The position numbers were made by a program, and so were the translations under genes. The notes under the pieces are model-generated. The model ran no database searches. It was not told the DNA's origin and saw nothing but the letters and a program-made list of their open reading frames with translations. A stretch of DNA of 59,242 nt from Deltaproteobacteria bacterium (GTDB taxonomy: Bacteria > Desulfobacterota > Syntrophia > Syntrophales > UBA5619): assembly GCA_023487865.1 (NCBI GenBank), contig JAMDBG010000032.1, positions 1 to 59,242 of the forward strand. Reading direction: 5' to 3'. Of this stretch, positions 13,861 through 43,492 are shown piece after piece (within the stretch, counting starts at the first letter, position 1; every line of letters starts with the position of its first letter).

Positions 13861-14625
13861 CTATGGGAGAAGGATAATACTTATTCGTCTATTCCTAAGA
13901 TCTTTGGTATTTTCTTTGATGAGAGGATCCTGGTCAGCATAACCAACGACCTTGGCGATTCTGTTGGGATCAACCCCATTGTTTTCAAGCTCCCTTCTGG
14001 CCGCGGACGCTCTTGATGTGGACAGTTCCCAGTTCGTTTTTTGAGCGCCCTTGAATGGAGCAGAGTCCGTATGACCCTCAATGGTGATGCGATTCGGCTT
14101 TTCTCTGAGATTTTCGGAAACCAATCTGATGATCTGACGTGCCTTTTCCGTCGGTTCAGCACTGCCGGACCGAAATATCTCACTGCCCTCGTTATCGACA
14201 ATCTGAATTTTAAGACCCTCTTTGGTCGTTTCAATCAAAACCTGATTTTTAAGAGCTTGCAGTTTATCATCAATGGCGCTCCGCATTATCTTTGCCAATT
14301 CTTCGGTAGTCACTTTTTTTTCCGCTTTCACCCTGGCTGATTCAGTCTGCACAGAACGCCCCACATTTAAAATGCCGTTTGATTTATCCAAAATGGATGT
14401 ACCGGACTGTTGAGGTTGATCCTTAAATATGCTGAATGTATTAAAATATTGAGATAGCGCAGCTTTGCTTTCAGGTGAAGTCATGGACAGCAGCCACAGG
14501 AGGAGAAAAAAAGCCATCATGGCTGTTACGAAGTCCGCATAGGCAACTTTCCATGAGCCGCCGTGATGCCCCCCATGTGTTTTTTTGTTCACTTTGCGAA
14601 TGATGATTTTTGAACGATCTTCCAT
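13861..14625 (-). CDS. motB: flagellar stator protein MotB (OmpA-like C-terminus)
   Basis: WKVAYADFVTAMMAFFLLLW transmembrane segment with the conserved Asp. C-terminal GHTD..NWELSTSRA..NRRI OmpA-like peptidoglycan-binding motif. Confidence 0.9.
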   Translation of the reverse strand: MEDRSKIIIRKVNKKTHGGHHGGSWKVAYADFVTAMMAFFLLLWLLSMTSPESKAALSQYFNTFSIFKDQPQQSGTSILDKSNGILNVGRSVQTESARVKAEKKVTTEELAKIMRSAIDDKLQALKNQVLIETTKEGLKIQIVDNEGSEIFRSGSAEPTEKARQIIRLVSENLREKPNRITIEGHTDSAPFKGAQKTNWELSTSRASAARRELENNGVDPNRIAKVVGYADQDPLIKENTKDLRNRRISIILLP

Positions 14626-14627
14626 GA

Positions 14628-15482
14628 TTACTTCTTCTTACGAAGGGATTCTTCGATTTCAGCAAATGACGGTTGGACATTTTCCGGAATGACCCGTCGA
14701 CCGAATTCAACTGCCACTTTCGGCGCTGATCCTCCAAGAAATGAGATCAAAGCAACCTTAAGAACATTTAAGTAATTCATCTTCTCTCCGGCAGCGTGCT
14801 CAAGATTTTTCCCGATAGGGCCTACAAATCCATAGCTTAGCAACACTCCAAGAAATGTTCCTAGCATTGCCGCACCTACACTCGCCCCTAAAACTTCAGG
14901 AGGTTCTTTCATTTTTCCCATTGTGAGCACGATCCCCAATACAGCAGCAACAATACCGAGCGCAGGAAGAGCGTCTGCAACAAAGGTGATCGCCTTAGAT
15001 GGAGCTAAGATTTCTTCGTGATAAGTTTCCAGTTCCGTGTCTATAAGAGCATCCAGTTCATGAGCCGCGATGGTTGTGGTCATCACTATTCTTAATGTAT
15101 CCGTTATGAGATTTATCGCACGATGATTATTTAATATTTTTGGATATTTATTAAATAGGGAACTTTTTTCGGGATCATCTACATCGGACTCAATGGAAAC
15201 CAGGCCTTGCTGTCTGATTTTGTAAAATACACCATTCAGCAACATCAGGGCATCGATGTAGTCTTCTTTGTTGTGGGAAGAGCTTGATAAAATGCCCAAG
15301 AGAGATCCCACTGTCGCTTTGATGACCTTTAAAGGATTGCTGATCAGAAACGAGCCTAGGGCTGCTCCGCCAATGATTAACAGTTCAACAGGCTGGAAAA
15401 GGACAGAAAGATTTCCATGTTCCAGTATATAGCCGCCAATGACGGAAGAGAGTACGACGATGATCCCCAAAATAAAAAACAT
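14628..15482 (-). CDS. motA: flagellar stator protein MotA
   Basis: 284 aa. N-terminus MFFILGIIVVLSSVIGGYILEHGNL. C-terminal MotA/TolQ/ExbB channel region ALPALGIVAAVLGIV. Sits 2 nt upstream of motB. Confidence 0.9.
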   Translation of the reverse strand: MFFILGIIVVLSSVIGGYILEHGNLSVLFQPVELLIIGGAALGSFLISNPLKVIKATVGSLLGILSSSSHNKEDYIDALMLLNGVFYKIRQQGLVSIESDVDDPEKSSLFNKYPKILNNHRAINLITDTLRIVMTTTIAAHELDALIDTELETYHEEILAPSKAITFVADALPALGIVAAVLGIVLTMGKMKEPPEVLGASVGAAMLGTFLGVLLSYGFVGPIGKNLEHAAGEKMNYLNVLKVALISFLGGSAPKVAVEFGRRVIPENVQPSFAEIEESLRKKK

Positions 15483-15488
15483 CGATGA

Positions 15489-16037
15489 CTATCTCCTTTT
15501 TTCCCGGATGATTTCTCTTTCTCTTTCAAAGACGAAACGGATGATTTCATCCCTCACTGAAGAATCCATATGCACGTAACGAACGGCAGTGAAGTATTTA
15601 TCAAGTTGTTTTTCAGACTTGGTTATCTCGCCATAGACTGACATGGCAACAGGTTGATTCCATGTGAGCATGATCTTTATTTCCAGAATCTCACCCAGGG
15701 GAATAGGTTTGGTCAATAAAAAACTCATCCCGCCCCCGCTGATATTGATAGTTTTGAAAGGAAGCCCGAAGTATCCTTCGCGCTGGAGAGTCATGAGACG
15801 AATGATGGTATCAAGCTTTGCATTAAGTATTTGAAGCCATTCTCCAAAAATATAATCATAGTCTCCGATATTCTGAACCGGCCTAATGTCGGATGTGGCA
15901 GTGTTGCCGGAAATTCTCGCCTGAATGTGGCATTTTTCATCATCAGCCACTATCCGATAGTCGAAAGGGATATATACGTCAACCCTTGAATATTCACGCC
16001 TCTGTATCTGTTCTTCACCCGCTTCATCCATACCCAA
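15489..16037 (-). CDS. PilZ-domain protein (putative c-di-GMP receptor) co-transcribed with motAB
   Basis: RREYSR (RxxxR) at aa 13-18 and NISGGG (D/NxSxxG) at aa 98-103. The stop lies 6 nt before the motA start. Confidence 0.75.
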   Translation of the reverse strand: MGMDEAGEEQIQRREYSRVDVYIPFDYRIVADDEKCHIQARISGNTATSDIRPVQNIGDYDYIFGEWLQILNAKLDTIIRLMTLQREGYFGLPFKTINISGGGMSFLLTKPIPLGEILEIKIMLTWNQPVAMSVYGEITKSEKQLDKYFTAVRYVHMDSSVRDEIIRFVFEREREIIREKRR

Positions 16038-17990: not shown

Positions 17991-19079
17991 ATGATAATCA
18001 ACAGTTATGTCCATATTTTTGAAAGTATCCCCGTGGGAGTCATGGTCATTGATCTATACGGGCATATTCTAACTGTTAACAAATATGCAAAATCCATTCT
18101 GAATATAACAGATACATCCATCAACAAGAAGCATATTCATACCCTCTTGGGGGATCAGGATTCCATCTCCACAGAGAATATACTTCATACCGAGCATTTT
18201 AGAAAAACATGCAGTTCAAAAATCAGGTATAAAGACAAAATATTGGAAATAATAGGCGGACCGCTGAATGGGAGAAAAGGTATCTTGTTGGGAGCTGTCA
18301 TTACTTTAAAAGATATCACAGAAATAGAAAAAAAACAGGCTCTGGAAAGAAAGAAGGAAAAGTATACCGTCATGGGGGAATTATCATCAGATATGGCCCA
18401 TGAAATCAGAAATCCTTTGGGAAGTATCGAACTGCTTGCTTCTCTGCTCAAAAAGGAATCAAAACGGAAAAAGGATATCAACCGGGCTAATCAGATCATA
18501 GCTGCTGTCAAGACCATGGAAAATAAAATTTCTCAACTGATCCATCTTTCCAAAACAAAACAGATTCCGGTCACGAATGTGAATATTCATAATGTCTTGA
18601 AAGACATCTTGCTTTTTTCGGAAAAGATCATTGATGGGGGAACGGTTATTTTATCGGCTCAGTATGCAGGCATTGAGCCCGTTATTGAATGCAATCCCGA
18701 CATGATGAAACAGGTTTTTCTTAATCTCATTCTTAATGCACTACAGGAAACCAGCCGCCTTGATATCGTAACCCATTATCTTCAAGACTCCAGGATGATT
18801 GAAATCTTTTTCATCGAAAAGAGTGAATCCGCTCTGGAGAACATTAGATCCGACATATTAAATCATCTATCACGAACAAAAAAGAAAAATTGGTGCCTTG
18901 GACTTGCTATCGTACATAATATCGTAAATATGTATAAAGGATATATAAGGGTTGAATATTTGGAAAAGGTTGGAACTGCCTTTGTTCTTTCCTTTCCTCT
19001 GGTCAGAGCAGAAACATCAGAACACGACAAAATCTATGATCCCATTGAGAATATGAAAGGAACGCATGAAGAAAAATAG
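17991..19079 (+). CDS. cytoplasmic PAS-domain sensor histidine kinase (FlrB/FleS-like)
   Basis: H-box SSDMAHEIRNPLGSI, N-box LNLILNALQE, G-box GLGLAIVHNIV. No transmembrane segment. Overlaps the downstream response regulator by 14 nt. Confidence 0.85.
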   Translation: MIINSYVHIFESIPVGVMVIDLYGHILTVNKYAKSILNITDTSINKKHIHTLLGDQDSISTENILHTEHFRKTCSSKIRYKDKILEIIGGPLNGRKGILLGAVITLKDITEIEKKQALERKKEKYTVMGELSSDMAHEIRNPLGSIELLASLLKKESKRKKDINRANQIIAAVKTMENKISQLIHLSKTKQIPVTNVNIHNVLKDILLFSEKIIDGGTVILSAQYAGIEPVIECNPDMMKQVFLNLILNALQETSRLDIVTHYLQDSRMIEIFFIEKSESALENIRSDILNHLSRTKKKNWCLGLAIVHNIVNMYKGYIRVEYLEKVGTAFVLSFPLVRAETSEHDKIYDPIENMKGTHEEK

Positions 19080-20448
19080 AATCCTCATTGTGGATGATGA
19101 TCATGCAATGAGACTTGCCCTGTCGGAATCTCTTGAAAGCTGTGGTTATGATATAGATGCGGCAGAAAACGGTAATGAAGCGCTTAGTCTATTCAATAAA
19201 AGGAAATTCGACTTAGTCGTAACCGATATGAAAATGCCAGGGATGACGGGCATTGAAGTATTACAGGGCGTCAAAAAAATGTCGCCAGATATTCCGGTCA
19301 TCCTTATAACAGCATATGGCACCGTCAACACAGCTGTTGAAGCTATGAAAGAGGGAGCTGCTGAGTTCATCATGAAACCATTTTCGTTGGATGATCTCGA
19401 AACCGTTGTCAAGAATGTTATAAGTACTTACAAAACAGAAGCATCACACAAACAGGAATTGCCCCACACCCCACAAAGAATTATCACCAAAGATCCTAAG
19501 TTGATCGCTATCATGGATATGCTCAAGAATGTTGCAAAAAGTAAATCCAGCATAATGATTCAAGGTGAAAGCGGCACCGGAAAGGAGCTTTTAGCGAAAT
19601 ATGTTCACGAACATAGCAACCGTCGGAACCATCCCTTTGTTGCCGTTAACTGCGCAGCCATTCCTCATAACCTACTTGAAAGTGAAATGTTTGGTTATGA
19701 AAAAGGGGCGTTTACCGGTGCATCACTAAGAAAGTTGGGAAAATTCGAGATTGCCCACACAGGAACGTTGCTCCTTGACGAAGTCAGTGAAATGGAAATT
19801 CACTTGCAGGCAAAACTCCTTAGAGTCATTCAGGAATCGGAAGTTGACCGCTTGGGTGGAAATTCCCCCATTCCTATTGATGTCAGGATTATATCCACAA
19901 CCAATATCAATCTAGCTTCAGCCATTAGCAATAAAACATTCCGTGGTGACCTTTACTACCGACTCAATGTGATACCCGTCAAAATTCCGCCACTCAGAGA
20001 GAGAAATGGTGACATTTTGTACTTGGCTGATCATTTCCTAGAAAAATTCGGTAAGGAAAAAGGGATTAATAAACCCACTCTCTCGGATAAGGCGGCTGCT
20101 TTTTTAACGACATACTCCTTCCCCGGCAATGTCAGAGAGTTGGAAAACATCATTGAAAGGGCGGTGTTAATGACGGATTGTGGCTATATTACTCAGGAAT
20201 CCCTCTGCCTAGAATCCCTTGATACAAGTGAAACAGGTCAACCGTGCGAATTGGAACCCCCGCCAATTATTAACACGACATCCCTAAATACGACAAAAAC
20301 TCTAAAGGACAGTGAAAGGGAAATAATCTGTGACACACTGAACAGAGTCGACGGAAATAAAACAAAGGCTGCAAAACTCTTAGGGATCAGCGTTCGAACG
20401 CTCTGGAATAAAGTGAATGAATATGGCATGACAGACAGCGGAAACTAA
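19066..20448 (+). CDS. sigma-54-dependent response regulator (NtrC family, FlrC/FleR-like)
   Basis: REC domain (DLVVTDMKMPGMTG). AAA+ Walker A GESGTGKE. Sigma-54 contact loop GAFTGA. C-terminal Fis-type HTH GNKTKAAKLLGISVRTLWNK. Confidence 0.9.
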   Translation: MKKNRILIVDDDHAMRLALSESLESCGYDIDAAENGNEALSLFNKRKFDLVVTDMKMPGMTGIEVLQGVKKMSPDIPVILITAYGTVNTAVEAMKEGAAEFIMKPFSLDDLETVVKNVISTYKTEASHKQELPHTPQRIITKDPKLIAIMDMLKNVAKSKSSIMIQGESGTGKELLAKYVHEHSNRRNHPFVAVNCAAIPHNLLESEMFGYEKGAFTGASLRKLGKFEIAHTGTLLLDEVSEMEIHLQAKLLRVIQESEVDRLGGNSPIPIDVRIISTTNINLASAISNKTFRGDLYYRLNVIPVKIPPLRERNGDILYLADHFLEKFGKEKGINKPTLSDKAAAFLTTYSFPGNVRELENIIERAVLMTDCGYITQESLCLESLDTSETGQPCELEPPPIINTTSLNTTKTLKDSEREIICDTLNRVDGNKTKAAKLLGISVRTLWNKVNEYGMTDSGN

Positions 20449-21619: not shown

Positions 21620-23182
21620 ATGAATCCAATGGCATATCTTGAAAGAATTTGGCAGGGTTTCGGCGCATTGCCCGGCCCAAGAAAAATGACCCTCCTCATT
21701 GTGTCCGTCCTAGTTATTGCCAGTATAATGACTTTTGTCCATTTCACAAATCAAGAGGATTATCGTATTCTTTTTTCTAATTTGACCAATGAGGACGCTT
21801 CAAACATCGTGACCAAGTTGAAAGAAAAAAAAGTGCCTTATCAAATATCCGCTTCTGGAGACACAATCTCTGTTCCTTCAGGGCAGGTTTCTGAACTCAG
21901 ATTAGAACTCGCTGCAGCAGGTCTTCCCCACGGCGGCGGAGTCGGCTTTGAAATCTTTGACAATAAAACCTTCGGGGCGACTGAATTTGAACAGCAGCTT
22001 AATTATCGACGGGCGCTGCAGGGTGAGCTGTCTCGTACAATCAATAGTCTCGATGAAATTCAACAATGCCGGGTGCATATAGTCCTCCCAAAGGAATCCT
22101 TATTCATCGAACAGCAAAAGAAACCCACGGCTTCAGTTACCATAAAACTAAAAGCAGGCAGGAAATTAAAAGCACCTCAAATAGACGGAATTGGACATCT
22201 GGTAGCAAGCAGTGTTGAAGGATTGAGTTCTGATGATGTAATGATCGTTGACAACCAGGGAAACATCTTGTCAAAAAAACAGGGGGATTCCAAGCTAGCC
22301 CGACTCTCATCTTCTCAGATCGAATATCAGCGAAATCTCGAGAAGGACATGGCAAACCAGATCCAATCCCTTCTTGAAAATGTAGTTGGCTACGGCAAGG
22401 CCGTGGTTAGGGTGAACACCGACCTGGACTTCAGAATAATGGAAAAAACTGAAGAATTTTATGATCCTGAATCACCGGTCGTCAGGAGTACTCAGAAACA
22501 AATGGACAAGGCAACCGGGCCTGCCCCTGCATCCAACAAGACCCCCGGCAATGCAGAACCTATCAGACCGGAAAAGGAAAAAACGGATGAGACCGTGAAT
22601 TACGAGATAAACAAGACAATCAGCAAAACGGTGATGCCTGTGGGTGAAATTAAAAAAATATCCATCGCCGTATTGGTCGACGGAATATATCAAAAAAACG
22701 AAAAGGGTGACGTGACATATCAGGAAAGACCGAAAAAAGAACTTGAATCCTTCGAAGATCTGGTCAGGAAATCATCCGGTTTTAACTCACAAAGAGGTGA
22801 TCAGGTTGTTGTGACCAGCATGCCGTTTAATCGGCCCGATTCAGAACAGGGAATGACGGGACAAACATGGCAGGACAAAGTCGCACCCGCAGTCCCAATC
22901 ATAAAATATGTGGTGCTAATAACGGGAATATTGCTGGTGTTTCTGTTTATCATCCGACCACTTGTCAGGAATATGATCAATAACACGCATGGAATCAAGG
23001 AAAACATGCAGCCACAGATTCCCTCGGATACCGGTGTTTCTGTCTCATTGAGTGGGTCGTCACCAACACTGTCCCTGTCTCAATTTGAAAATAAATCTCT
23101 CAATGAGATGGATTTGGCCAAACAGCTCGCCGGTGCTGATTCGAAAAAATTTGCTGAATTGCTAAGGAATTGGCTGAAATGA
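21620..23182 (+). CDS. fliF: flagellar MS-ring protein FliF
   Basis: 520 aa; N-terminal TM segment, YRILFSNLTNEDASNIVTKLKEKKVPYQ, second TM segment near the C-terminus. Confidence 0.93.
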   Translation: MNPMAYLERIWQGFGALPGPRKMTLLIVSVLVIASIMTFVHFTNQEDYRILFSNLTNEDASNIVTKLKEKKVPYQISASGDTISVPSGQVSELRLELAAAGLPHGGGVGFEIFDNKTFGATEFEQQLNYRRALQGELSRTINSLDEIQQCRVHIVLPKESLFIEQQKKPTASVTIKLKAGRKLKAPQIDGIGHLVASSVEGLSSDDVMIVDNQGNILSKKQGDSKLARLSSSQIEYQRNLEKDMANQIQSLLENVVGYGKAVVRVNTDLDFRIMEKTEEFYDPESPVVRSTQKQMDKATGPAPASNKTPGNAEPIRPEKEKTDETVNYEINKTISKTVMPVGEIKKISIAVLVDGIYQKNEKGDVTYQERPKKELESFEDLVRKSSGFNSQRGDQVVVTSMPFNRPDSEQGMTGQTWQDKVAPAVPIIKYVVLITGILLVFLFIIRPLVRNMINNTHGIKENMQPQIPSDTGVSVSLSGSSPTLSLSQFENKSLNEMDLAKQLAGADSKKFAELLRNWLK

Positions 23183-24174
23183 TCAATGAAGAAAAAGCCG
23201 CTATTATGCTTCTGTCTCTGGATGAAGACATAGCCGCCGGGGTTATGAAGAATCTTCGTCCGTCTGAAATCAAGCGTATCGGTAAATATATGAATCGTAT
23301 TACGACTATTCCCTCAGAAACCATGAACACGGTTGCCAAGGAATTCATATCACTGGCGAAGGAAAGAGGCGGTAGTCTTTCTGTAGGAGATGATAGTATA
23401 AAAAACATTATCACCAAGGCGTTGGGAGAAAAAAGTGCCCAAGAACTGTTGTTAGAAGTCGCTAATAGCAAATCCTCTGATAATCCCATTACCGATAAGC
23501 TCAGGGACATGGACCCGAAAATCTTGATGGAATTTACGAAGACAGAACATCCCCAAACGATTGCCATGATCCTTGCTCATATGTCTCCGGAGCAGGCGGC
23601 AATCATGCTGGAGGGGTTTTCTGGTCCCATGCAGATCGAGATTGCGAAAAGAATGTCTACTTTAAAGAGCGTCCCACACGAGTTCTTGGAGGATGTGGCC
23701 AAAACCCTCGAAAAGGAGCTTATAACGGAAAACAGCACGGACCAGCAGGTTGGTGGGGTCAAGTTCATGTCAGAAATCCTTAACCGAATGAGCAGGGCAA
23801 GCGAGAATACCATTCTCACTTCGCTTGAGGATGAAGACGCTGAATTGGCTGCTCAATTGAGAGGGCTCATGTTCACATTTGAAGATGTCCTGAAAATCGA
23901 TGATAAAAGTCTTCAAGAACTTCTGCGCGAAATATCCACAGAGGACTTATCGAAGGCAATGAAAATGATTGACGAAAGTATGAGGGAAAAAATATATCGT
24001 AACATGTCGAGACGCGGCGCGGAAATGTTGAAGGAGGACATTGAAATGATGCCTCCCATCCGCTTGTCCGAAGTGGAGGCAAGCCAGAGAACCATTCTTG
24101 ATGTGACCAAGAAATTGGAAGCCGAAGGACGAATTATGATCCTGCGAGGCGGTGAGGAAGATACATTTGTTTGA
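23170..24174 (+). CDS. fliG: flagellar motor switch protein FliG
   Basis: 334 aa; AAIMLLSLDEDIAAGVMKNL, EIAKRMSTL and MFTFEDV motifs; overlaps the fliF stop. Confidence 0.93.
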   Translation: MAEMINEEKAAIMLLSLDEDIAAGVMKNLRPSEIKRIGKYMNRITTIPSETMNTVAKEFISLAKERGGSLSVGDDSIKNIITKALGEKSAQELLLEVANSKSSDNPITDKLRDMDPKILMEFTKTEHPQTIAMILAHMSPEQAAIMLEGFSGPMQIEIAKRMSTLKSVPHEFLEDVAKTLEKELITENSTDQQVGGVKFMSEILNRMSRASENTILTSLEDEDAELAAQLRGLMFTFEDVLKIDDKSLQELLREISTEDLSKAMKMIDESMREKIYRNMSRRGAEMLKEDIEMMPPIRLSEVEASQRTILDVTKKLEAEGRIMILRGGEEDTFV

Positions 24175-24188
24175 TCTTGTAGGTTGCC

Positions 24189-24632
24189 GTGTTTAACTTT
24201 AAATTGCAGAGCATCCTAAATGTCAGGAAAACACAGGAAGATAAACTCCTACAGGAATTCTCCGAGAAGCAAAAGGATCTTCGTAAGGAACATGAACACC
24301 TCAAATTGATACAACAAGAAAAAAAACTGCTTATCGATGAGCTCAGAAATGTTCAAGGTAAAACCGTGAATGTCACTGAAATTGCAATGAATACAGAAGG
24401 CATTAAAAGACATCAGAAAAGCGAAACTCTGCAGAAGGAACAAGTAAGGGAAGCCCAAAAAAAGATGGAAGAAAAAAGAGAAGCCCTGTTTGAGGCCATA
24501 AAAAGAAGAAAAACTATGGAAACCCTTAAATCCAAGCAGTTTGAACTGCATCAGTCCGAGGCCAACCTGCTCGAGAGGACGGCGATTGATGAAATGGCTA
24601 TTGTCCGTCACAACAGGAGGGAGCAAGAGTGA
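24189..24632 (+). CDS. fliJ: flagellar export protein FliJ
   Basis: 147-aa coiled-coil protein; GTG start. N-terminus FKLQSILNVRKTQEDKLLQEF is FliJ-like. Call is by motif and position. Confidence 0.7.
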   Translation: MFNFKLQSILNVRKTQEDKLLQEFSEKQKDLRKEHEHLKLIQQEKKLLIDELRNVQGKTVNVTEIAMNTEGIKRHQKSETLQKEQVREAQKKMEEKREALFEAIKRRKTMETLKSKQFELHQSEANLLERTAIDEMAIVRHNRREQE

Positions 24633-25234
24633 AAAGATTCGTAATCGCCTGCCAGATCGTTATTATTACTCTTTTTATTATAAAAATGTATTTTCTTGTG
24701 GAAGCTCTACAGATCATCTCAATACCATCGTATTTCTCAATGGATCACTTCGGCCAAGCGATCGCTCAGACAACAACAACTCCCATCCCTCCAATTAAAG
24801 AGGTAAAGGATATTACAGAAGATCCTCTCCAAAAAGAACGTGACCTTGTCGATTTCCTGCAAAAAAAACAGAAGGCTTTGGACACTCGGGAAGGCCTTAT
24901 TAAGGCAGAAGAGCAAAAAATTGTCGCATTGAAGAAAGAAATTATGGAAAAAATTGATGCGCTGAAGGCACTTGAATCTCAGCTCAGTTCTAGACTGGAT
25001 GCAGATAAATTAAACGATGTCAAAAGGTTAAAGGAACTTGCCAAAGTCTATGAAGCGACTCCACCGCAAAAAGCGGCCGCAATGCTCGAAAAATTAGAGC
25101 TCAGGACAGCGGCCGGGATAACCATCAATATGAAACGTGATAAGGCCGGCTTGATTTGGGGCTATCTCACCCCACAAAAGGCTGTTGCCATTACAAATGA
25201 AATCACCCGAACAGTCCGTTTAACCGCTGAATAG
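24629..25234 (+). CDS. membrane-anchored MgtE-N-like flagellar protein (YlxF/FlbB/MotE-like)
   Basis: GTG start overlapping the fliJ stop (GTGA). N-terminal TM segment, coiled coil, C-terminal PPQKAAAMLEKL...ITINMKRDKAGLIWGYLTPQKAVAI. Same fliJ-ylxF-fliK position as the Bacillus fla/che operon. Confidence 0.7.
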   Translation: MKRFVIACQIVIITLFIIKMYFLVEALQIISIPSYFSMDHFGQAIAQTTTTPIPPIKEVKDITEDPLQKERDLVDFLQKKQKALDTREGLIKAEEQKIVALKKEIMEKIDALKALESQLSSRLDADKLNDVKRLKELAKVYEATPPQKAAAMLEKLELRTAAGITINMKRDKAGLIWGYLTPQKAVAITNEITRTVRLTAE

Positions 25235-28034: not shown

Positions 28035-29261
28035 ATGGGAAGCGCAATATCAATCGGTCAGACTGGTCTCGCGGCCAGTTCAAAACAGATGGAGGTGATC
28101 GGCAACAATTTAGCGAACTCCAACACGGTAGGCTTCAAAGCCAGTAATACTTTATTTGCTAATATGATGAACCAGGGTCTATCCAGTGCCGGATCCTTGG
28201 CCGCCGGACAGGGAGTCGCGGTCACCAGCATGCCGACCCAGTTCGCGCAGGGGTCTTTTGAAAACACAAGCAGTGCCACTGATATGGCCATCGACGGTGA
28301 AGGATTCTTCATGCTGAAGGATACCAGCGGTACCATACTCTATTCTCGAGCAGGCGCGTTTCACATCGATAAAGAGGGCAATCTTGTAGATGGCAAAGGA
28401 TTCAAAGTACAAGGTTATTCGATAGAAGATGACATTTTATCGACTGTACCAGGAAATATCTTTCTGCAGAAAGCCAAGGATGCTACACCGACAAAAGAGA
28501 TAAGCTTCGGGGCCAATTTTAATGAAACCACTGCTGTTGCAGGAGAATTCAACGTGTCACAGAGCGTTTATGACTCAAAAGGGGGAGCCCATACCTTGTC
28601 TTTCACCTTTACGAAGACAGCCACAGCAGGCGAATGGACTTATACGGTGACATTTGATGGCGTAGCCACCGGGGCAGGCAATAATGGTACCATACAATTC
28701 GCAGCGGACGGCACTTATACACCCGTGGCTGATAGGACGATTACCATCAATAGCGCCGATCCGCTCATCGCCGCCAAACTCAAGGGTGCGACGATCGGAA
28801 CCGCAGGTGCTATTACTTGGGCTCTCTTCACCAAACCCACTGAGGAACTTACCGGTTATGCCAGCACCTCTGTCGTCAGATCTCTCAATTCCGACGGCTT
28901 CGCCTCCGGAGACCTGAGGAGTTTAAGCATTGACAGCAACGGGGTCATTAGTGGCGTGTATACAAATGGCGAAGTTGTAGAACTGGCTCAGGTCTGCTTG
29001 GCAAACTTTGAGGACCAAACCATGCTCAAGAAGAATGGGAACTATTTCGGGGAAACTTCCGGTTCCGGGAAAGCCACACCGAATCCTGCGGGAACCGCTG
29101 GACTCGGTGAAATCCAGGCTTACTCCCTTGAGGTTTCCAACACAGATGTCGCCAAGGAATTTATCAATATGATCACGGCTCAACGAGCCTACCAGGCCAG
29201 TGCGAAAGTCATCACCACCGCCGATAATATGCTCACAGAGCTTATGAACATCAAACGTTAA
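28035..29261 (+). CDS. flgE: flagellar hook protein FlgE
   Basis: 408 aa; N-terminal GLAASSKQMEVIGNNLANSNTVGFK; C-terminal VSNTDVAKEFINMITAQRAYQASAKVITTADNML. Confidence 0.93.
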   Translation: MGSAISIGQTGLAASSKQMEVIGNNLANSNTVGFKASNTLFANMMNQGLSSAGSLAAGQGVAVTSMPTQFAQGSFENTSSATDMAIDGEGFFMLKDTSGTILYSRAGAFHIDKEGNLVDGKGFKVQGYSIEDDILSTVPGNIFLQKAKDATPTKEISFGANFNETTAVAGEFNVSQSVYDSKGGAHTLSFTFTKTATAGEWTYTVTFDGVATGAGNNGTIQFAADGTYTPVADRTITINSADPLIAAKLKGATIGTAGAITWALFTKPTEELTGYASTSVVRSLNSDGFASGDLRSLSIDSNGVISGVYTNGEVVELAQVCLANFEDQTMLKKNGNYFGETSGSGKATPNPAGTAGLGEIQAYSLEVSNTDVAKEFINMITAQRAYQASAKVITTADNMLTELMNIKR

Positions 29262-29272
29262 CATGAACCACC

Positions 29273-29306
29273 GGACAGGATCAGGAATATTTTCCTGATC
29301 CTGTCC
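29273..29306 (+). terminator. strong stem-loop after flgE (probable terminator or processing site)
   Basis: GGACAGGATCAGGA-atattt-TCCTGATCCTGTCC, a 14-bp perfect stem. No clear T-tract follows. Confidence 0.55.
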
Positions 29307-29388
29307 TCCATAAAATAAGCTTGACTGGAATCATGATTTCATATTAATAATACATATTATATAAAATTGTCCCCATCGAAGGTAATAG

Positions 29389-29634
29389 ATGGATATTAAA
29401 GTGCATGGCCTTGGAAGCTCTCCTGTCCTTCCGGCACAAAGGCTCGAACTGCCGGAACAGCAAATCCATGCCGCTTTTTATCCCCCTTTACCTTTGCGCA
29501 CTGACGAAATCATCGATTACATCGAAATTCAATCCAACAATTATCAACCGGCATCCACCCCACCCTCCTCCTATCTGATTCGCACCGACAAACCTGCCCA
29601 GGCCAAAGGAACATTCATCGACGTATGGATTTGA
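29389..29634 (+). CDS. hypothetical 81-aa protein at the position occupied by flbD in flgE-flbD-motA-motB clusters
   Basis: ORF with a weak GAAGG RBS. No convincing family motif; only a faint DEIIDYIEIQSNN resemblance to the FlbD core. Confidence 0.3.
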   Translation: MDIKVHGLGSSPVLPAQRLELPEQQIHAAFYPPLPLRTDEIIDYIEIQSNNYQPASTPPSSYLIRTDKPAQAKGTFIDVWI

Positions 29635-29730
29635 CATTCACGTCAATACTTTGACGATTTTTCTGGATGTTCTTTCTTTTTTTCATCTGAATCTCACTTG
29701 GTTACCCAATCCAATATCGCTATTGCTTCT

Positions 29731-29746
29731 TGGCATATTCCTTGCT
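29731..29746 (+). promoter_or_regulatory. sigma-54 promoter (TGGCAT-N5-TTGCT) for the second stator / fliL-fliA operon
   Basis: TGGCATATTCCTTGCT with GG-N10-GC spacing, 48 nt upstream of the GTG start at 29794. Confidence 0.7.
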
Positions 29747-29793
29747 GAATATTTAATAGCATGTAGTGCATAACATCATTCATTGAGGAATAT

Positions 29794-30570
29794 GTGGATT
29801 TTGCAACGATTATAGGGATTATCGGCGGCTTCGGCCTTGTGATCATCGCCATGGTGTCTGGGGGTGGCTTTGCTTGGTTCGTTGACTGGCCATCTGCCAT
29901 GATTGTATTGGGAGGTACCTTTGGCGCTGTCTTAATCAATTATCCCATCTCTGATGTATTGGGGGTTATCAAAGTGGCAAAAAACGCCTTTCGGGGCAAG
30001 AAACAACAGGCAGACGTTGTTATCAATCGACTTGTTGAAATGTCCAAAGTATCCCGCCGTGATGGCCTCATATCGCTCCAGAGACTGATCCAGGAAAATA
30101 AGGAAAGGGATCCCTTCCTGATTAAAGCAATCAATCTTGTTGTAGACGGTATTGATCCTCTTCATGTGTCTGATATTATGCAAACTGAGCTTGATTCTCT
30201 TTCGGAAAGACATCGGCTGGGAGCAGAAATTTTTACTACCATGGGTAATTTTGCACCGGCTATGGGTCTTGTCGGTACATTAATCGGGCTGGTCCAAATG
30301 CTCAAACAAATGAACAGTCCCGGCACAATCGGTCCGGCCATGGCTGTAGCTTTGATCACCACCTTTTATGGGGTTATCTTGGCCAATCTCGTATTTCTGC
30401 CTATTGCGGGTAAGCTTAAAACCAAAAGTTCACAGGAGCTTTTATTGAAGCAGCTTATTATTAATGGGATACTATCCATTCAATCCGGGGATAATCCAAG
30501 AGTCCTCGAGCAAAAGCTCCATTCATACATTGCTCCTCGGGAAAGAAAGTCGCGTTTTTATCATGATTAG
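29794..30570 (+). CDS. motA: second flagellar stator A subunit (MotA/PomA-like)
   Basis: 258 aa; GTG start with GAGGA RBS. MDFATIIGIIGGFGLVIIAMVSGG N-terminus. GNFAPAMGLVGTLIGLVQML and FYGVILANLVFLPIAGKL channel helices. Confidence 0.88.
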   Translation: MDFATIIGIIGGFGLVIIAMVSGGGFAWFVDWPSAMIVLGGTFGAVLINYPISDVLGVIKVAKNAFRGKKQQADVVINRLVEMSKVSRRDGLISLQRLIQENKERDPFLIKAINLVVDGIDPLHVSDIMQTELDSLSERHRLGAEIFTTMGNFAPAMGLVGTLIGLVQMLKQMNSPGTIGPAMAVALITTFYGVILANLVFLPIAGKLKTKSSQELLLKQLIINGILSIQSGDNPRVLEQKLHSYIAPRERKSRFYHD

Positions 30571-31201
30571 ACAGACCAAACAAAATGTGATTGAACCACT
30601 TCCGCAATGGCAAACGATTTACTGTTCTCTGATGCTTCTACTCGTTGTTTTTTTTGTGATGTTGATAGCCTATTCCACTATCGATAAAGACAAGTTTATG
30701 CAAATCAAAGAACTCACACACATAGTGCAAAATATTTCGCAGCCAGTGCCGGATATGAATCATGCAATGCAATCTTTGAAGCAATTGGCAGTCAATCTGG
30801 AAATGAACAACGATTTTGCCATCATTAAAACAAATGACGGCTTCAAGGCAGTCTTCCCAAATCCGGTTCTATTTGGATCCGGGGATGCATCACTCAACGA
30901 GACTGTATATTCTGTGCTCGACGGCATCATTAGAATTGCAAAACATAACAATTTGTCGATTCAGGTAGAAGGACATACAGACAATCTGCCGATTGAAACA
31001 GCGAAATTTCCTTCGAATTGGGAATTGTCTACGATGCGGGCTGTCAATATTCTGAGATATTTACAGAACAATGGCGGCATCCCCGCGAGCAGATTGGTAG
31101 CCGTCGGCTTTGCTGAATATCAGCCGACAGCTAGCAATAACACGCCGGAAGGACGTCGAAATAATCGGCGGATTGTGATTCTTTTCAGGCCGGAAATATG
31201 A
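30563..31201 (+). CDS. MotB/PomB-like OmpA-domain protein lacking the conserved channel Asp
   Basis: The ATG at 30563 overlaps the motA stop. TM segment WQTIYCSLMLLLVVFFVML aligns with WKVAYADFVTAMMAFF but has Ser (codon 30626-30628) where the Asp should be. C-terminal VEGHTDNLP..FPSNWELSTMRA..NRRIVI OmpA-like domain. Confidence 0.8.
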   Translation: MIRQTKQNVIEPLPQWQTIYCSLMLLLVVFFVMLIAYSTIDKDKFMQIKELTHIVQNISQPVPDMNHAMQSLKQLAVNLEMNNDFAIIKTNDGFKAVFPNPVLFGSGDASLNETVYSVLDGIIRIAKHNNLSIQVEGHTDNLPIETAKFPSNWELSTMRAVNILRYLQNNGGIPASRLVAVGFAEYQPTASNNTPEGRRNNRRIVILFRPEI

Positions 31202-31803
31202 CAATACCGAACCATATGAACCAAATCCAGACAAGGACATGGCAGATGAGTTTCAACGATCTTTTGACCGTCCTGCTGACTTTCTTTATCCTCCTCGTTT
31301 CCGCGTCGGAAATAAACATAAATAAAGTCCAGGATTTATCGTTTTCTGCTGCAGATGTTTTTGGATCAAAGAAATATGAAGATCAACATAATCTGTTGAT
31401 CCGGACAATTGGTACTATGGATGGAATTAATGTTCATCCTGTTAAGGGTGGGCTCTTGATTAAACTCTCTGAATCCTTGGTTTACCAATCCGGATCAGCA
31501 GACATCATACACAAAGACATGTTAAGGGAACTGGGTAACAAACTCAGAACAGTGGCTAGAACTATCCGTGTTGAAGGACATACGGATTCAATTCCTGTCG
31601 CCAATGAAACATTCCCGTCAAATTGGGAATTATCCACTCAACGGGCTGTAAATGTAGTGAAATTTCTTGCCAACGAGTGCGGAATCGATCAGCGAAATCT
31701 ATCGGCGGCTGGATATGCCGATTCACGGCCAGTTGCCTCCAATGACAACCCTGAAGGCAGAGCGCTAAACAGACGAGTAAATATGATTGTCTCATTAAAG
31801 TGA
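31198..31803 (+). CDS. motB: MotB/PomB-like stator B subunit with the conserved Asp
   Basis: 4-nt overlap (ATGA) with the upstream gene. TM segment WQMSFNDLLTVLLTFFILLV carries Asp at codon 31258-31260. C-terminal VEGHTDSIP..FPSNWELSTQRA..NRRVNM. Confidence 0.85.
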   Translation: MTIPNHMNQIQTRTWQMSFNDLLTVLLTFFILLVSASEININKVQDLSFSAADVFGSKKYEDQHNLLIRTIGTMDGINVHPVKGGLLIKLSESLVYQSGSADIIHKDMLRELGNKLRTVARTIRVEGHTDSIPVANETFPSNWELSTQRAVNVVKFLANECGIDQRNLSAAGYADSRPVASNDNPEGRALNRRVNMIVSLK

Positions 31804-31810
31804 GGGGATT

Positions 31811-32296
31811 ATGGCAAAAGACAAAAAAGAAGTTGAGGAAGAAGAAAAACCGGTAGAACCAAAGAAAAAGTCCATATTAAAATGGATTATCATCTTATCA
31901 GTCCTTTTGGCAATCATCATAGCCGGAACAATTTCTGGATTTTACTTTTTCACAAAAACAGAGAATAAAAAGACTGCAGTCGAAAAAACAGTTGCATTAA
32001 CCGTTTGGCCGATGGATGCATTTATCATTAATATTGCCGAGACCAACGGAGAAAGATATCTGAAGATCGTCATGCAACTGGAGGTTTCCGACCCCTCTGT
32101 AATTAGCGAACTCGAGCAGCTAAAGCCGCGCCTTCGTGATAGTATACTCGATTTACTGACACCTAAAACATATAAAGAATTGATGGATCTTTCCGGAAAA
32201 CAGCGACTCCGTGAAGACATCGCAGGACGAATCAATAATATTCTTCAACGAGGTAAAGTGACTAAAGTTTATTTCACGGATTTCGTTATTCAATAA
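31811..32296 (+). CDS. fliL: flagellar basal body-associated protein FliL
   Basis: 161 aa; Lys/Glu-rich N-terminus, single TM segment, YLKIVMQLEVSD and VTKVYFTDFVIQ C-terminus typical of FliL. Confidence 0.88.
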   Translation: MAKDKKEVEEEEKPVEPKKKSILKWIIILSVLLAIIIAGTISGFYFFTKTENKKTAVEKTVALTVWPMDAFIINIAETNGERYLKIVMQLEVSDPSVISELEQLKPRLRDSILDLLTPKTYKELMDLSGKQRLREDIAGRINNILQRGKVTKVYFTDFVIQ

Positions 32297-32313
32297 CAAC
32301 AGGGAGTCTTATC

Positions 32314-33315
32314 GTGGCAAATATCTTATCTCAAGAAGAAGTTGATGCCCTGTTGAGGGGTATATCAGGTGGTGAGATTGAGACCGAAGTGGTGGACCTT
32401 CAGGGCCCTTCGGATGTCATGACCTATGACCTGACAAGTCAGGACAGGATTATCCGTGGGCGCATGCCGACATTGGAGATGACCAATGAGAAGTTTGCCA
32501 GGATGTTCCGTACAACATTATCCTCCTTGCTTCGCAAGGTTACAAGTGTGAACGCTATTTCAACCGATATGGTCAAGTTCGGGGAATTTCTAAAATCGAT
32601 TCCTGTTCCAACCAGTATGCACCTATTCAAGCTAGAGCCTTTGCGTGGCAGTGCTTTAATTATTGTTGAATCTAAAATTATCTTTATGCTTGTGGATATC
32701 ATTTTTGGCGGCTCGGGAAGAAGTGCTTTTAAAATCGAAGGTAGGGAGTTTACAGCGATTGAAAGCAACATTATCAAAAAGGTCATATTAAGTGCACTTG
32801 GTGATCTTGAGAAGGCATGGCAATCTCTTATTGGTTTGAAAGTCTCCTACCAGCGTTCGGAAATCAATCCTCAATTCGTCCAACTGGTTCCTCCAACTGA
32901 TGTCGTCATTGTGTCCAATTTTGAGATTGAGGTGGAATATTCTTCGGGCACTATTTCCGTTTGTATTCCTTATTCAACACTCGAACCGCTTCGGGATCGG
33001 TTACAGGCAGGTTATCAAAGTGAGCAACTTGAGGTCGATAAAACCTGGATTAATCGGTTTAAGGGAGGGCTGCTTGCATCAAAAATCGACCTTACCGCTC
33101 GTCTGGGAAGCACGGAAATTAATGCCGGTGAAGTCATAAGCCTAAAAAAAGGGGATGTTATTCCCCTGTCTCAATGTATGTTAGATCCGCTAAATGTCTA
33201 TGTTGAAGGGGTGCTGAAATTCAGAGGTCGCCCCGTCATCTATAAAGGCAATCAAGCGATACAAGTTTCGCAAATCATTTCAAATGACGAGGTAATTGAT
33301 TATGGAACAGAGTGA
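32314..33315 (+). CDS. fliM: flagellar motor switch protein FliM
   Basis: 333 aa; GTG start. N-terminal CheY-P docking peptide LSQEEVDALL. FliM middle domain and C-terminal SpoA-like domain. Confidence 0.92.
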   Translation: MANILSQEEVDALLRGISGGEIETEVVDLQGPSDVMTYDLTSQDRIIRGRMPTLEMTNEKFARMFRTTLSSLLRKVTSVNAISTDMVKFGEFLKSIPVPTSMHLFKLEPLRGSALIIVESKIIFMLVDIIFGGSGRSAFKIEGREFTAIESNIIKKVILSALGDLEKAWQSLIGLKVSYQRSEINPQFVQLVPPTDVVIVSNFEIEVEYSSGTISVCIPYSTLEPLRDRLQAGYQSEQLEVDKTWINRFKGGLLASKIDLTARLGSTEINAGEVISLKKGDVIPLSQCMLDPLNVYVEGVLKFRGRPVIYKGNQAIQVSQIISNDEVIDYGTE

Positions 33316-42337: not shown

Positions 42338-43492
42338 ATGACGCCCGTCATAACGTCTCCTCAGCCCTCCAGGAAAATCATAATCCCGCAGGAAGCACAG
42401 TCGGGTTCCAAATCCACACCGACACCTCCTCTGGTCTTAGGTGAAAATCTGGACGTTCTTGTTCTCAGCAACAGTTTTAATCGCAAGGCTCTTCTACAAA
42501 TAAAAAATTCTACCCTGCTGGCCCACACTCCCCTCCCGCTTCAAAGCGGCGAAACATTGACGGTACTTGTTGATCAGCTACATCCCATGATTGTTTTACG
42601 GATGATTCTACAGGAAGATCCAGAAATTTCGAAATCAAATGAATTCCTTAAGCTTTACAGATCCAATCCTGGTGCTCTGAAGGAGGTAATCGCCACTGTA
42701 AAAGATCTTTTACATCCTGATCATTTGAAGGATTTTGCGAATTACATTTCGAAAAAAGACATTCAGAACATCATTAAGGTTCTGGATAAAATCATCATCT
42801 CTAAAAATAATATAACCAATCCCCATTTTCTTAAGGATAGCATTGTTGCTCTCGGTTTGGCTGGCGAACGGAGACTCTTGAATGCGTTATCGGATCCGAC
42901 GATTTTAATTAATGAACAAAACAGCCCGACTCTGAAAGAAATCCTGCTGAAGCTGTCATCCAAATTTGCACCGATTCATGTCGGCAGCGAATATACTGAA
43001 CACGATGGCCTGAAGGTCCGGCAATTCTCTCATTTCATTGATCAGGCTTTGAAGGTCATCGAATCGCTACAAATCGTCAATATTTTGGCGATGGAGCGGG
43101 ATGGTCTTCTTGTGCTGCAATTTCCCTTTCAATTTCAAGAGGGGATTAGAATACAGGACCTTTTTATAGAGACCGACCGGGGGAAAAATGAACAGGAAGT
43201 CGACAAGAAATATCGTATTGTCGTCTTTCTGGACATGGACACCCTTGGCGAACTTGCCGTCGACGCTGGAATTCAAGGCAGGACGCTCCAATGTACTCTA
43301 AAATGTTCTGATCAGTATGTGCTGGATTTTATGCAAACACTCCTCCCGGAACTCCAGGAAACACTATCAGGACTTGATTACACAATAGGCGGTTTGCAAT
43401 GCGTATTGGACATGAATATCCAGTCCTGGAAACGCGATTTCCTTCAGACTCACAGCATGTATTCTCAGAGCGTCATTGATGTATGCGTATGA
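42338..43492 (+). CDS. FliK-like protein (C-terminal Flg_hook-type domain, no long ruler region)
   Basis: 384 aa. C-terminal YRIVVFLDMDTLGELAVDAGIQGRTLQCTLKCSDQYVLDFMQTLLPELQETLSGLDY follows the pattern of the FliK C-terminal domain seen at 25405..27243. Overlaps the next gene by 10 nt. Confidence 0.6.
   Translation: MTPVITSPQPSRKIIIPQEAQSGSKSTPTPPLVLGENLDVLVLSNSFNRKALLQIKNSTLLAHTPLPLQSGETLTVLVDQLHPMIVLRMILQEDPEISKSNEFLKLYRSNPGALKEVIATVKDLLHPDHLKDFANYISKKDIQNIIKVLDKIIISKNNITNPHFLKDSIVALGLAGERRLLNALSDPTILINEQNSPTLKEILLKLSSKFAPIHVGSEYTEHDGLKVRQFSHFIDQALKVIESLQIVNILAMERDGLLVLQFPFQFQEGIRIQDLFIETDRGKNEQEVDKKYRIVVFLDMDTLGELAVDAGIQGRTLQCTLKCSDQYVLDFMQTLLPELQETLSGLDYTIGGLQCVLDMNIQSWKRDFLQTHSMYSQSVIDVCV

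Follow-up and report, generated by a model that had tools for sequence, protein, structure and literature searches.

The window analysed here is the entire 59,242-nucleotide (nt) contig JAMDBG010000032.1 (assembly GCA_023487865.1) of a Deltaproteobacteria bacterium of the Syntrophales. In the middle part of a large flagellar gene cluster it carries a stator locus (29794-31803) in which one motA gene is followed by two tandem motB-like genes. The product of the first of these, termed B' here, has no aspartate (Asp) at the ion-binding position of MotB proteins, and the product of the second, termed B, has it. Judged from sequence comparisons, an Asp-less MotB that always lies next to a normal MotB is no local oddity and forms an old, conserved, multi-phylum family. 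With moderate confidence we read motA-motB'-motB as a single stator system whose B subunits are of two kinds, in which B' and B would build a heterodimeric stalk within a ring made up of five MotA copies (MotA5).

The motA gene (29794..30570) encodes a PomA-like stator A subunit of 258 amino acids (aa) and extends from a GTG start codon to a TAG stop codon at 30568-30570. The gene for the Asp-less paralogue, motB' (30563..31201; 212 aa), starts with the ATG at 30563 in an 8-nt overlap with the end of motA, and motB (31198..31803; 201 aa), encoding the Asp-bearing partner, starts within a 4-nt ATGA overlap with the stop codon of motB'. Directly 3' of motB lies fliL (31811..32296; Pfam FliL, 89 bits), and all four genes are on the plus strand. 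An original prediction, made from the sequence of the window alone, had described one motA and two tandem MotB paralogues with overlapping stop and start codons, and its coordinates were confirmed. A longer version of motB' starting at 30464, present in the list of open reading frames (ORFs), was rejected because of the 107-nt overlap with motA that it would create and because homologues start with MIRQTK.

B' was predicted to comprise a transmembrane helix (residues 15-38, QWQTIYCSLMLLLVVFFVMLIAYS; 30605..30676, plus strand), a plug helix (residues 42-56; 30686..30730, plus strand), both as delimited in an AlphaFold2 model, and an OmpA-like peptidoglycan-binding domain (residues 103-202, the extent of the Pfam OmpA match; 30869..31168, plus strand). 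The MotB_plug match of B', spanning residues 15-49, scored 32.4 bits and that of B 35.7 bits (cut-off 24), and the OmpA matches scored 74.8 bits for B' and 58.6 bits for B, all above the gathering scores; the peptidoglycan-binding domains are thus intact in both paralogues, as had been claimed. The strings WQTIYCSLMLLLVVFF and WQMSFNDLLTVLLTFF, cited in the original prediction, were both found in the proteins. B' and B of the window are 32% identical.

Alignments with phmmer placed Ser22 of B' (codon 30626..30628, plus strand) in the column of the ion-binding Asp of Bacillus subtilis MotB, motif YAD (6ysl), and likewise opposite the Asp of Clostridium sporogenes MotB, motif FSD (6ysf), and of Vibrio alginolyticus PomB, motif FAD (8bri). 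In the same way, Asp21 of B (codon 31258..31260, plus strand) aligned with the conserved Asp of these three solved stator chains, which designates it as the ion-binding carboxylate. Codons and alignments therefore agree with the proposed exchange of Asp for Ser in the first paralogue. Furthermore, the membrane helix was ungapped throughout a MAFFT alignment of 30 sequences, consisting of 12 B'-type proteins, 12 partner B proteins and 6 single MotB proteins. The Asp column of this alignment read S,S,S,S,S,S,G,G,N,S,S,N in the 12 B' rows and D in all 18 other rows. An alternative acidic residue in the helix of the first paralogue had been named as one observation that would speak against the prediction, but none was present in the membrane helix of any B' row. 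The Thr at position +3 from the Asp, conserved in ordinary MotB proteins, is Leu in B'.

Compared with the features that define the B subunits of the MotB/PomB type, B' has the membrane helix and plug, the stator-type OmpA domain and the adjacency to motA in a motility locus and, close to where the helix meets the cytoplasm, lacks the ion-binding Asp, which is present in B and in the MotB of the second stator locus of the window. Since this functional hallmark is missing despite the MotB architecture, we do not file B' as a canonical MotB; its sequence identifies it as MotB-like in architecture.

The AlphaFold2 model of B', computed with the family alignment, reached a mean predicted local distance difference test score (pLDDT) of 91.5 and shows helices at residues 15-38 (membrane), 42-56 (plug) and 65-78, followed by the OmpA-like domain. 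In a Foldseek search the periplasmic part of the model came closest to B subunits of stators, namely B. subtilis MotS (9ljl) with a target TM-score of 0.88 and a root mean square deviation of 2.0 Å, along with Vibrio PomBc, Helicobacter pylori MotB and the Desulfovibrio vulgaris MotB-like protein 3khn. B' retains the basic N-terminal tail, the MotB-type membrane helix, the plug helix and a peptidoglycan-binding domain resembling those of MotS and PomB, and in this sense keeps all that a MotB needs to sit in the MotA pentamer and to bind the cell wall.

The single MotA of the locus gave a Pfam MotA_ExbB match of 103.5 bits, had PomA as its best NCBIfam match (282 bits) and aligned with V. alginolyticus PomA from end to end (8bri; 213 bits). 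It has the MotA_ExbB fold, the channel Pro and Thr residues and the rotor-facing Arg expected of a MotA/PomA protein, and retains the equivalents of PomA R88, P151, T158, T185/T186 and P199. Because the residues of the ion path are kept, it looks like a working ion-conducting A subunit. At the position of Glu96 of Vibrio PomA, a rotor-facing charged residue, it carries Gln.

A single-sequence search with B' yielded thousands of relatives, the best 120 of which were 61-100% identical overall. The helix motif QWQTIYCSLMLLLVVFF of B' was near-invariant among relatives down to 61% overall identity, and all of the best 120 that included the N-terminus carried QWQTIYCSL(M/V/I)LLLVVFF with two or so conservative substitutions at most, making the membrane helix the best-conserved part of the protein in this set. 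In a wider search, conducted without a word index against 1.84 billion cluster representatives, all close relatives of B' were joined in a single 50% cluster; of the 128 representatives of 50% clusters that came next and had a recognisable helix, 90 had the Asp and 38 did not. The consensus of these 38 was W-[QE]-x-[IV]-Y-[CST]-[SGA]-[LF]-x-L-I-L-V-A-F-F-x-M-L-V-S-Y-S. Moreover, all 115 helix-bearing top matches to a profile of 36 Asp-less sequences were without Asp (56 Ser, 56 Gly, 3 Ala), a count that is partly circular given that the profile was built from Asp-less sequences, unlike the two single-sequence searches, which are not circular. The Asp-less state is common to every full-length close relative and to 38 of the 128 cluster representatives and is therefore far beyond chance.

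Across the family the Asp position is occupied by Ser, Gly, Ala or Asn, and judging from this range it needs only a small neutral residue. The plug motif YS-x-[IV]-[DE]-x-x-K is kept throughout the family, and the OmpA-domain motifs EGHTDN, FPSNWELS and NRR of B' are conserved. This pattern is that of a protein under strong constraint and not of a decaying copy, the other outcome that would have contradicted the original prediction. The wider family was found in Thermodesulfobacteriota and Nitrospirota, and the source names, where given, were metagenome-assembled genomes (MAGs) of Deltaproteobacteria, Thermodesulfobacteriota and Desulfobacterales. Its Nitrospiria subfamily comprises some 40 clusters whose helix reads (L/V)MMVSLNLIL(L/V)IFF, and additional Asp-less subtypes exist, for example TSLSVILLAFFILLN. 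Relatives of B' are labelled 'MotB', 'chemotaxis protein MotB' or 'OmpA family protein' in the sources, and none of the NCBIfam models reached its cut-off against B'. In one metagenomic contig (L082, 5001-6422) the peptidoglycan-binding motifs are eroded in both B' (GHTSD, DSNWVLS, KNERLEF) and B (VEDHTAD, ASSWELS, LN-RIDL), and cell-wall binding may be relaxed in this lineage.

Conservation of the Asp-less paralogue and of its tandem order in relatives, which the original prediction had left to be checked, was borne out. A general genome scan was dominated by generic OmpA-domain patterns, and three of its 80 loci were close relatives. The sample considered here comprises 13 B' loci, selected partly for long contigs: that of the window, those of uncultured deltaproteobacteria (L001, L002) and of a member of the Syntrophaceae (L003), six on metagenomic contigs (L081, L082, L083, L085, L088, L089), one in the Desulfobacterales genome CP070694.1 (L087) and two from Nitrospira or Nitrospiria (L067, L078). 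B' was immediately followed by an Asp-bearing MotB in all 13 loci, so that the pairing is obligate in this sample, and 4-nt overlaps of stop and start codons were frequent at the junction of the two genes. Loci of the Desulfobacterota type share the order (fliK-flgD-flgE)-motA-B'-B-fliL-fliM-fliN-fliO-fliP as far as the contigs reach, with fliL 3' of the B'-B pair in every one examined. In the Desulfobacterales genome (3656-3979 of L087), motA is reduced to its last ~55 codons 5' of an intact B'-B-fliL-fliM series, and genes of the benzoyl-CoA-reductase/dehydratase type lie further 5'; from this remnant and these upstream genes we conclude that the operon was broken by rearrangement. The Nitrospira MAG (350-5969 of L067) has no flgE-fliL operon at this place, and its motA-B'-B triad is flanked by cheY-cheZ-DUF454-pilZ upstream and an EAL/HDOD gene downstream.

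The partner B also bears a mark of the pairing. In the Desulfobacterota loci it almost always reads W-x-x-[TSP]-F-N-D around the Asp, and the FND motif was not seen among the ~60 single MotB proteins of the genome scan mentioned above, whose motifs are YAD, YGD, FAD, YSD and the like. As this motif indicates, B appears to have varied in concert with B', and the two partners look co-adapted.

The age of the duplication was addressed by reciprocal BLASTP bit scores, which are weaker evidence of orthology than a tree. B' of Nitrospira matched B' of Desulfobacterales with 152 bits, gapless over 228 residues, compared with 138 bits for its own partner B and 121 bits for the Desulfobacterales B. Conversely, B of Nitrospira matched the Desulfobacterales B with 156 bits and the Desulfobacterales B' with 130 bits. 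Because the scores are reciprocal across the phyla, they point to a single old duplication that was shared by, or exchanged between, Desulfobacterota and Nitrospirota. A Clostridia MAG (L006, 3322-4696) carries motA followed by an Asp-bearing MotB (TFGD) and then by a MotB in which Asn takes the place of the Asp (LYAN). Membership of this tandem in the B' family was rejected since each of its two copies matches the other best (177 bits), and it looks like an independent duplication, in a single MAG, that converged on the one-Asp arrangement.

Several lines of evidence favour a place for B' in the MotA ring and next to B. No feature of B' is more conserved than its membrane helix and plug, and these are of use only to a protein in the ring. 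The fixed gene order and the frequent translational coupling of the two genes argue for B' and B in one and the same ring, as do the co-variation of B, seen in its FND motif, and the single motA that serves both B genes. According to this proposal, one B' and one B would pair as the stalk inside the MotA5 ring, giving A5:B'1:B1 with one carboxylate instead of two, and B' would supply one of the two halves of both the plug and the cell-wall anchor. Under the alternating two-Asp model of stator rotation, the two Asp residues take turns at a hydrated site, where an ion is accepted, and at a buried site with a bond to a MotA Thr (bioRxiv 10.64898/2026.04.14.718414). The neutral residue of B' could enter the buried position facing the MotA Thr without ion uptake, and ion coupling would occur only at the steps of Asp21 of B, that is, at every second 36-degree sub-step. 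About 5 rather than 10 ions would then pass per turn of MotA5, and the maximal torque per unit would be roughly halved. Extended to the family, the proposal becomes more tentative: many Thermodesulfobacteriota and some Nitrospirota may drive their flagella by a natural MotA5:B'1:B1 stator with a single ion-binding carboxylate.

Some points weigh against the B'/B heterodimer. It is inferred from gene order, coupling and conservation, and the consequences for ion number and torque are pure inference. MotB of Escherichia coli with the D32N exchange is non-functional and dominant-negative; this effect could mean that mixed dimers are dead, although it does not distinguish mixed dimers from competing dead units. 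The varying residue at the Asp position shows no specific chemistry, in line with a passive role of B' and equally with a non-conducting unit. Moreover, our searches of the B' family found no named cultured strain.

Such non-conducting units are the core of the best-surviving alternative, which we nevertheless consider unlikely. Here the one MotA would serve two homodimeric units, an active A5B2 and a non-conducting A5B'2, and the latter would bind rotor and cell wall without ion flow, in the role of a brake or placeholder or of a regulator, dependent on load and signal, of how many active units are engaged. With its helix, plug and peptidoglycan-binding domain kept, B' could fill the MotA ring alone, and the lack of conserved chemistry at its Asp position is compatible with this. 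E. coli MotB carrying an Asp-to-Asn exchange assembles and does not conduct, which we also count in favour of A5B'2 units. However, a regulator of this kind has no obvious need for a fixed gene order, for frequent coupling or for a partner-specific FND motif in B, and the plug has been conserved although it would be needless where conduction is impossible.

It is rather improbable that B' acts outside the MotA ring as a membrane-anchored, cell-wall-binding scaffold that, in the manner of MotY, the T-ring or FliL, recruits or stabilises A5B2. Periplasmic scaffolds with OmpA domains are known, B' has an intact domain of this kind and is encoded beside fliL, and both B' and B gave weak MotY matches in the phmmer search. 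Against this stands that the MotB-type helix and plug, gapless in alignment with real MotB proteins, are the most conserved part of B'; a plain membrane anchor is not expected to be so constrained, and proteins of the MotY type lack both helix and plug of this kind. Of the three roles suggested in the original prediction, an in-ring subunit, be it half of a heterodimeric stalk or a non-conducting unit, is therefore favoured, and the MotY-like auxiliary is disfavoured because the MotB helix and plug have been kept.

We give very little credence to a B' that carries the ion at a non-carboxylate site, for instance a conserved Tyr-Cys-Ser cluster, with both chains being ion-coupled. Tyr20 indeed hardly varies, and much of the family has Cys, Ser or Thr at position 21, but at the Asp position about one half of the members carry Gly or Ala, and the Cys is swapped for Ser or Thr, so that conservation does not extend to any single protonatable group; in addition, the helix is free of acidic residues and the Thr at +3 is lost as well. 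That B' is a decaying or dispensable motB duplicate, as the loss of a residue held essential for MotB function might suggest, is hardly credible in view of its intact frame, the near-invariant helix in hundreds of relatives, the reciprocal best matches between two phyla and the high-confidence predicted fold.

Among known systems, canonical MotB, PomB and MotS, which form MotA5B2 stators, share with B' the basic N-terminus, the one membrane helix, the plug, the linker and the OmpA-like domain, as well as a gene position directly after motA in a flagellar operon. What sets B' apart is Ser at the Asp position, with Gly, Ala or Asn in other members of the family, Leu in place of the +3 Thr, and the constant presence of a second, Asp-bearing B gene in the 13 loci. 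In Aquifex aeolicus, motA-motB1-motB2 likewise combine one motA with two tandem motB genes in one operon; the membrane and N-terminal regions of MotB1 and MotB2 are 97% identical, residue 20 (Gly or Ser) being the one difference, and each protein functions with MotA as a chimera (PMC4525482). In contrast, the helices of B' and B of the window differ throughout and the Asp is present only in B. A heterodimeric B-type insert in a 5:2 motor has been predicted for the AglR5-AglQ-AglS gliding motor of Myxococcus (PMC11761067). One A-type gene accompanied by two different B-type genes is common to AglRQS and to the window and its relatives, the AglRQS heterodimer itself being only predicted, but AglRQS is a non-flagellar system of the TolQ/TolR type without an OmpA domain. 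MotY and T-ring accessories resemble B' in having a peptidoglycan-binding OmpA-like domain tied to stator function and differ in that MotY has neither the MotB-type helix nor the plug, both of which are present in B'.

Bacteria with dual stators, such as Pseudomonas (MotAB and MotCD), Shewanella (PomAB and MotAB) and Bacillus (MotAB and MotPS), have complete pairs of A and B subunits, each with its own Asp. The window is similar in that it has two stator loci, the triad in the flagellar operon and a pilZ-motA-motB locus. We know of no dual-stator system with an extra Asp-less B inside one locus.

Full-text searches turned up no account of flagellar MotB paralogues without the Asp, and none of heterodimers of MotB, within an incomplete coverage that makes a prior description possible. 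A survey based on ancestral reconstruction of MotB admitted only sequences that have FAD, YAD or LAD (PMC7787011), and this restriction excluded the Asp-less family. A 2025 survey of MotAB evolution makes no mention of the aspartate or of tandem genes. The B' family has thus probably been overlooked so far, being annotated as ordinary 'MotB' or 'OmpA family protein'.

The second stator locus of the window (13861-16037, minus strand), which had also been part of the original prediction, was verified by Pfam matches and by the AYAD motif of its MotB. It consists of pilZ (15489..16037; Pfam PilZ), a second motA (14628..15482; MotA_N and MotA_ExbB) and a second motB (13861..14625; MotB_plug, 69.9 bits, and OmpA) with the Asp present, and its domain content marks it as a second, canonical stator. 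Its units would constitute a separate stator set linked to cyclic di-GMP (c-di-GMP). Parts related to c-di-GMP also lie beside the motA-B'-B triad of the Nitrospira MAG and echo this pilZ-motAB locus.

The flagellar cluster of the window begins with genes for a PAS histidine kinase and a sigma-54-dependent response regulator (17991-20448, plus strand), a pair resembling FlrBC/FleSR that lies directly 5' of flgB-flgC, flgB being named by position as it had no Pfam match. These are followed by fliF, fliG and fliJ, then by fliK, flgD, flgE, motA, motB', motB, fliL, fliM, fliN, fliO, fliP, fliQ and fliR, and finally by flhB, flhA, flhF, flhG, fliA, flgF, flgG, flgA and flgH. The gene fliJ (24189-24632) follows directly on fliG (23170-24174), the usual intervening fliH and fliI being absent from this position. 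A 201-aa ORF without a Pfam match (24629-25234, plus strand) is located between fliJ and fliK. After fliA there is a second FliK-like ORF of 384 aa (42338-43492, plus strand), whose Flg_hook match of 26.9 bits is below the 29.8-bit cut-off, and together with fliK the cluster holds two hook-length-control-like genes. An 81-aa ORF between flgE and motA (29389-29634, plus strand) was considered as FlbD and rejected, having no Pfam or NCBIfam match and no similarity to the FlbD of one of the metagenomic loci (L083), which occupies the equivalent position. A promoter and terminator scan of 29200-32400 gave nothing interpretable, with promoter-like sites at or below the expectation from shuffled sequence, and three small metatranscriptomes from a related study had zero coverage of the locus and were uninformative. 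DNA near-identical to 29794-31803 was found in metagenomes of sediment, mine tailings, mine drainage and groundwater from several studies, and on these grounds the host organism appears to be widespread in the anoxic subsurface.

The ion-binding Asp of MotB is regarded as universal and essential, and current rotary models use two such residues in turn. The B' family lends itself as a natural test case for the sufficiency of a single carboxylate per stator unit, and any of the roles considered for B', as half of a stalk, as a non-conducting unit or as an anchor, bears on the coupling of ion flow to rotation and on the tuning of stator number and cost. If the A5:B'1:B1 composition is true, the alternation of two Asp residues in the 5:2 rotary model would not be obligatory, and these bacteria would have a mode of rotation with low ion cost and lower torque that, as a matter of speculation, possibly suits energy-limited anaerobes.

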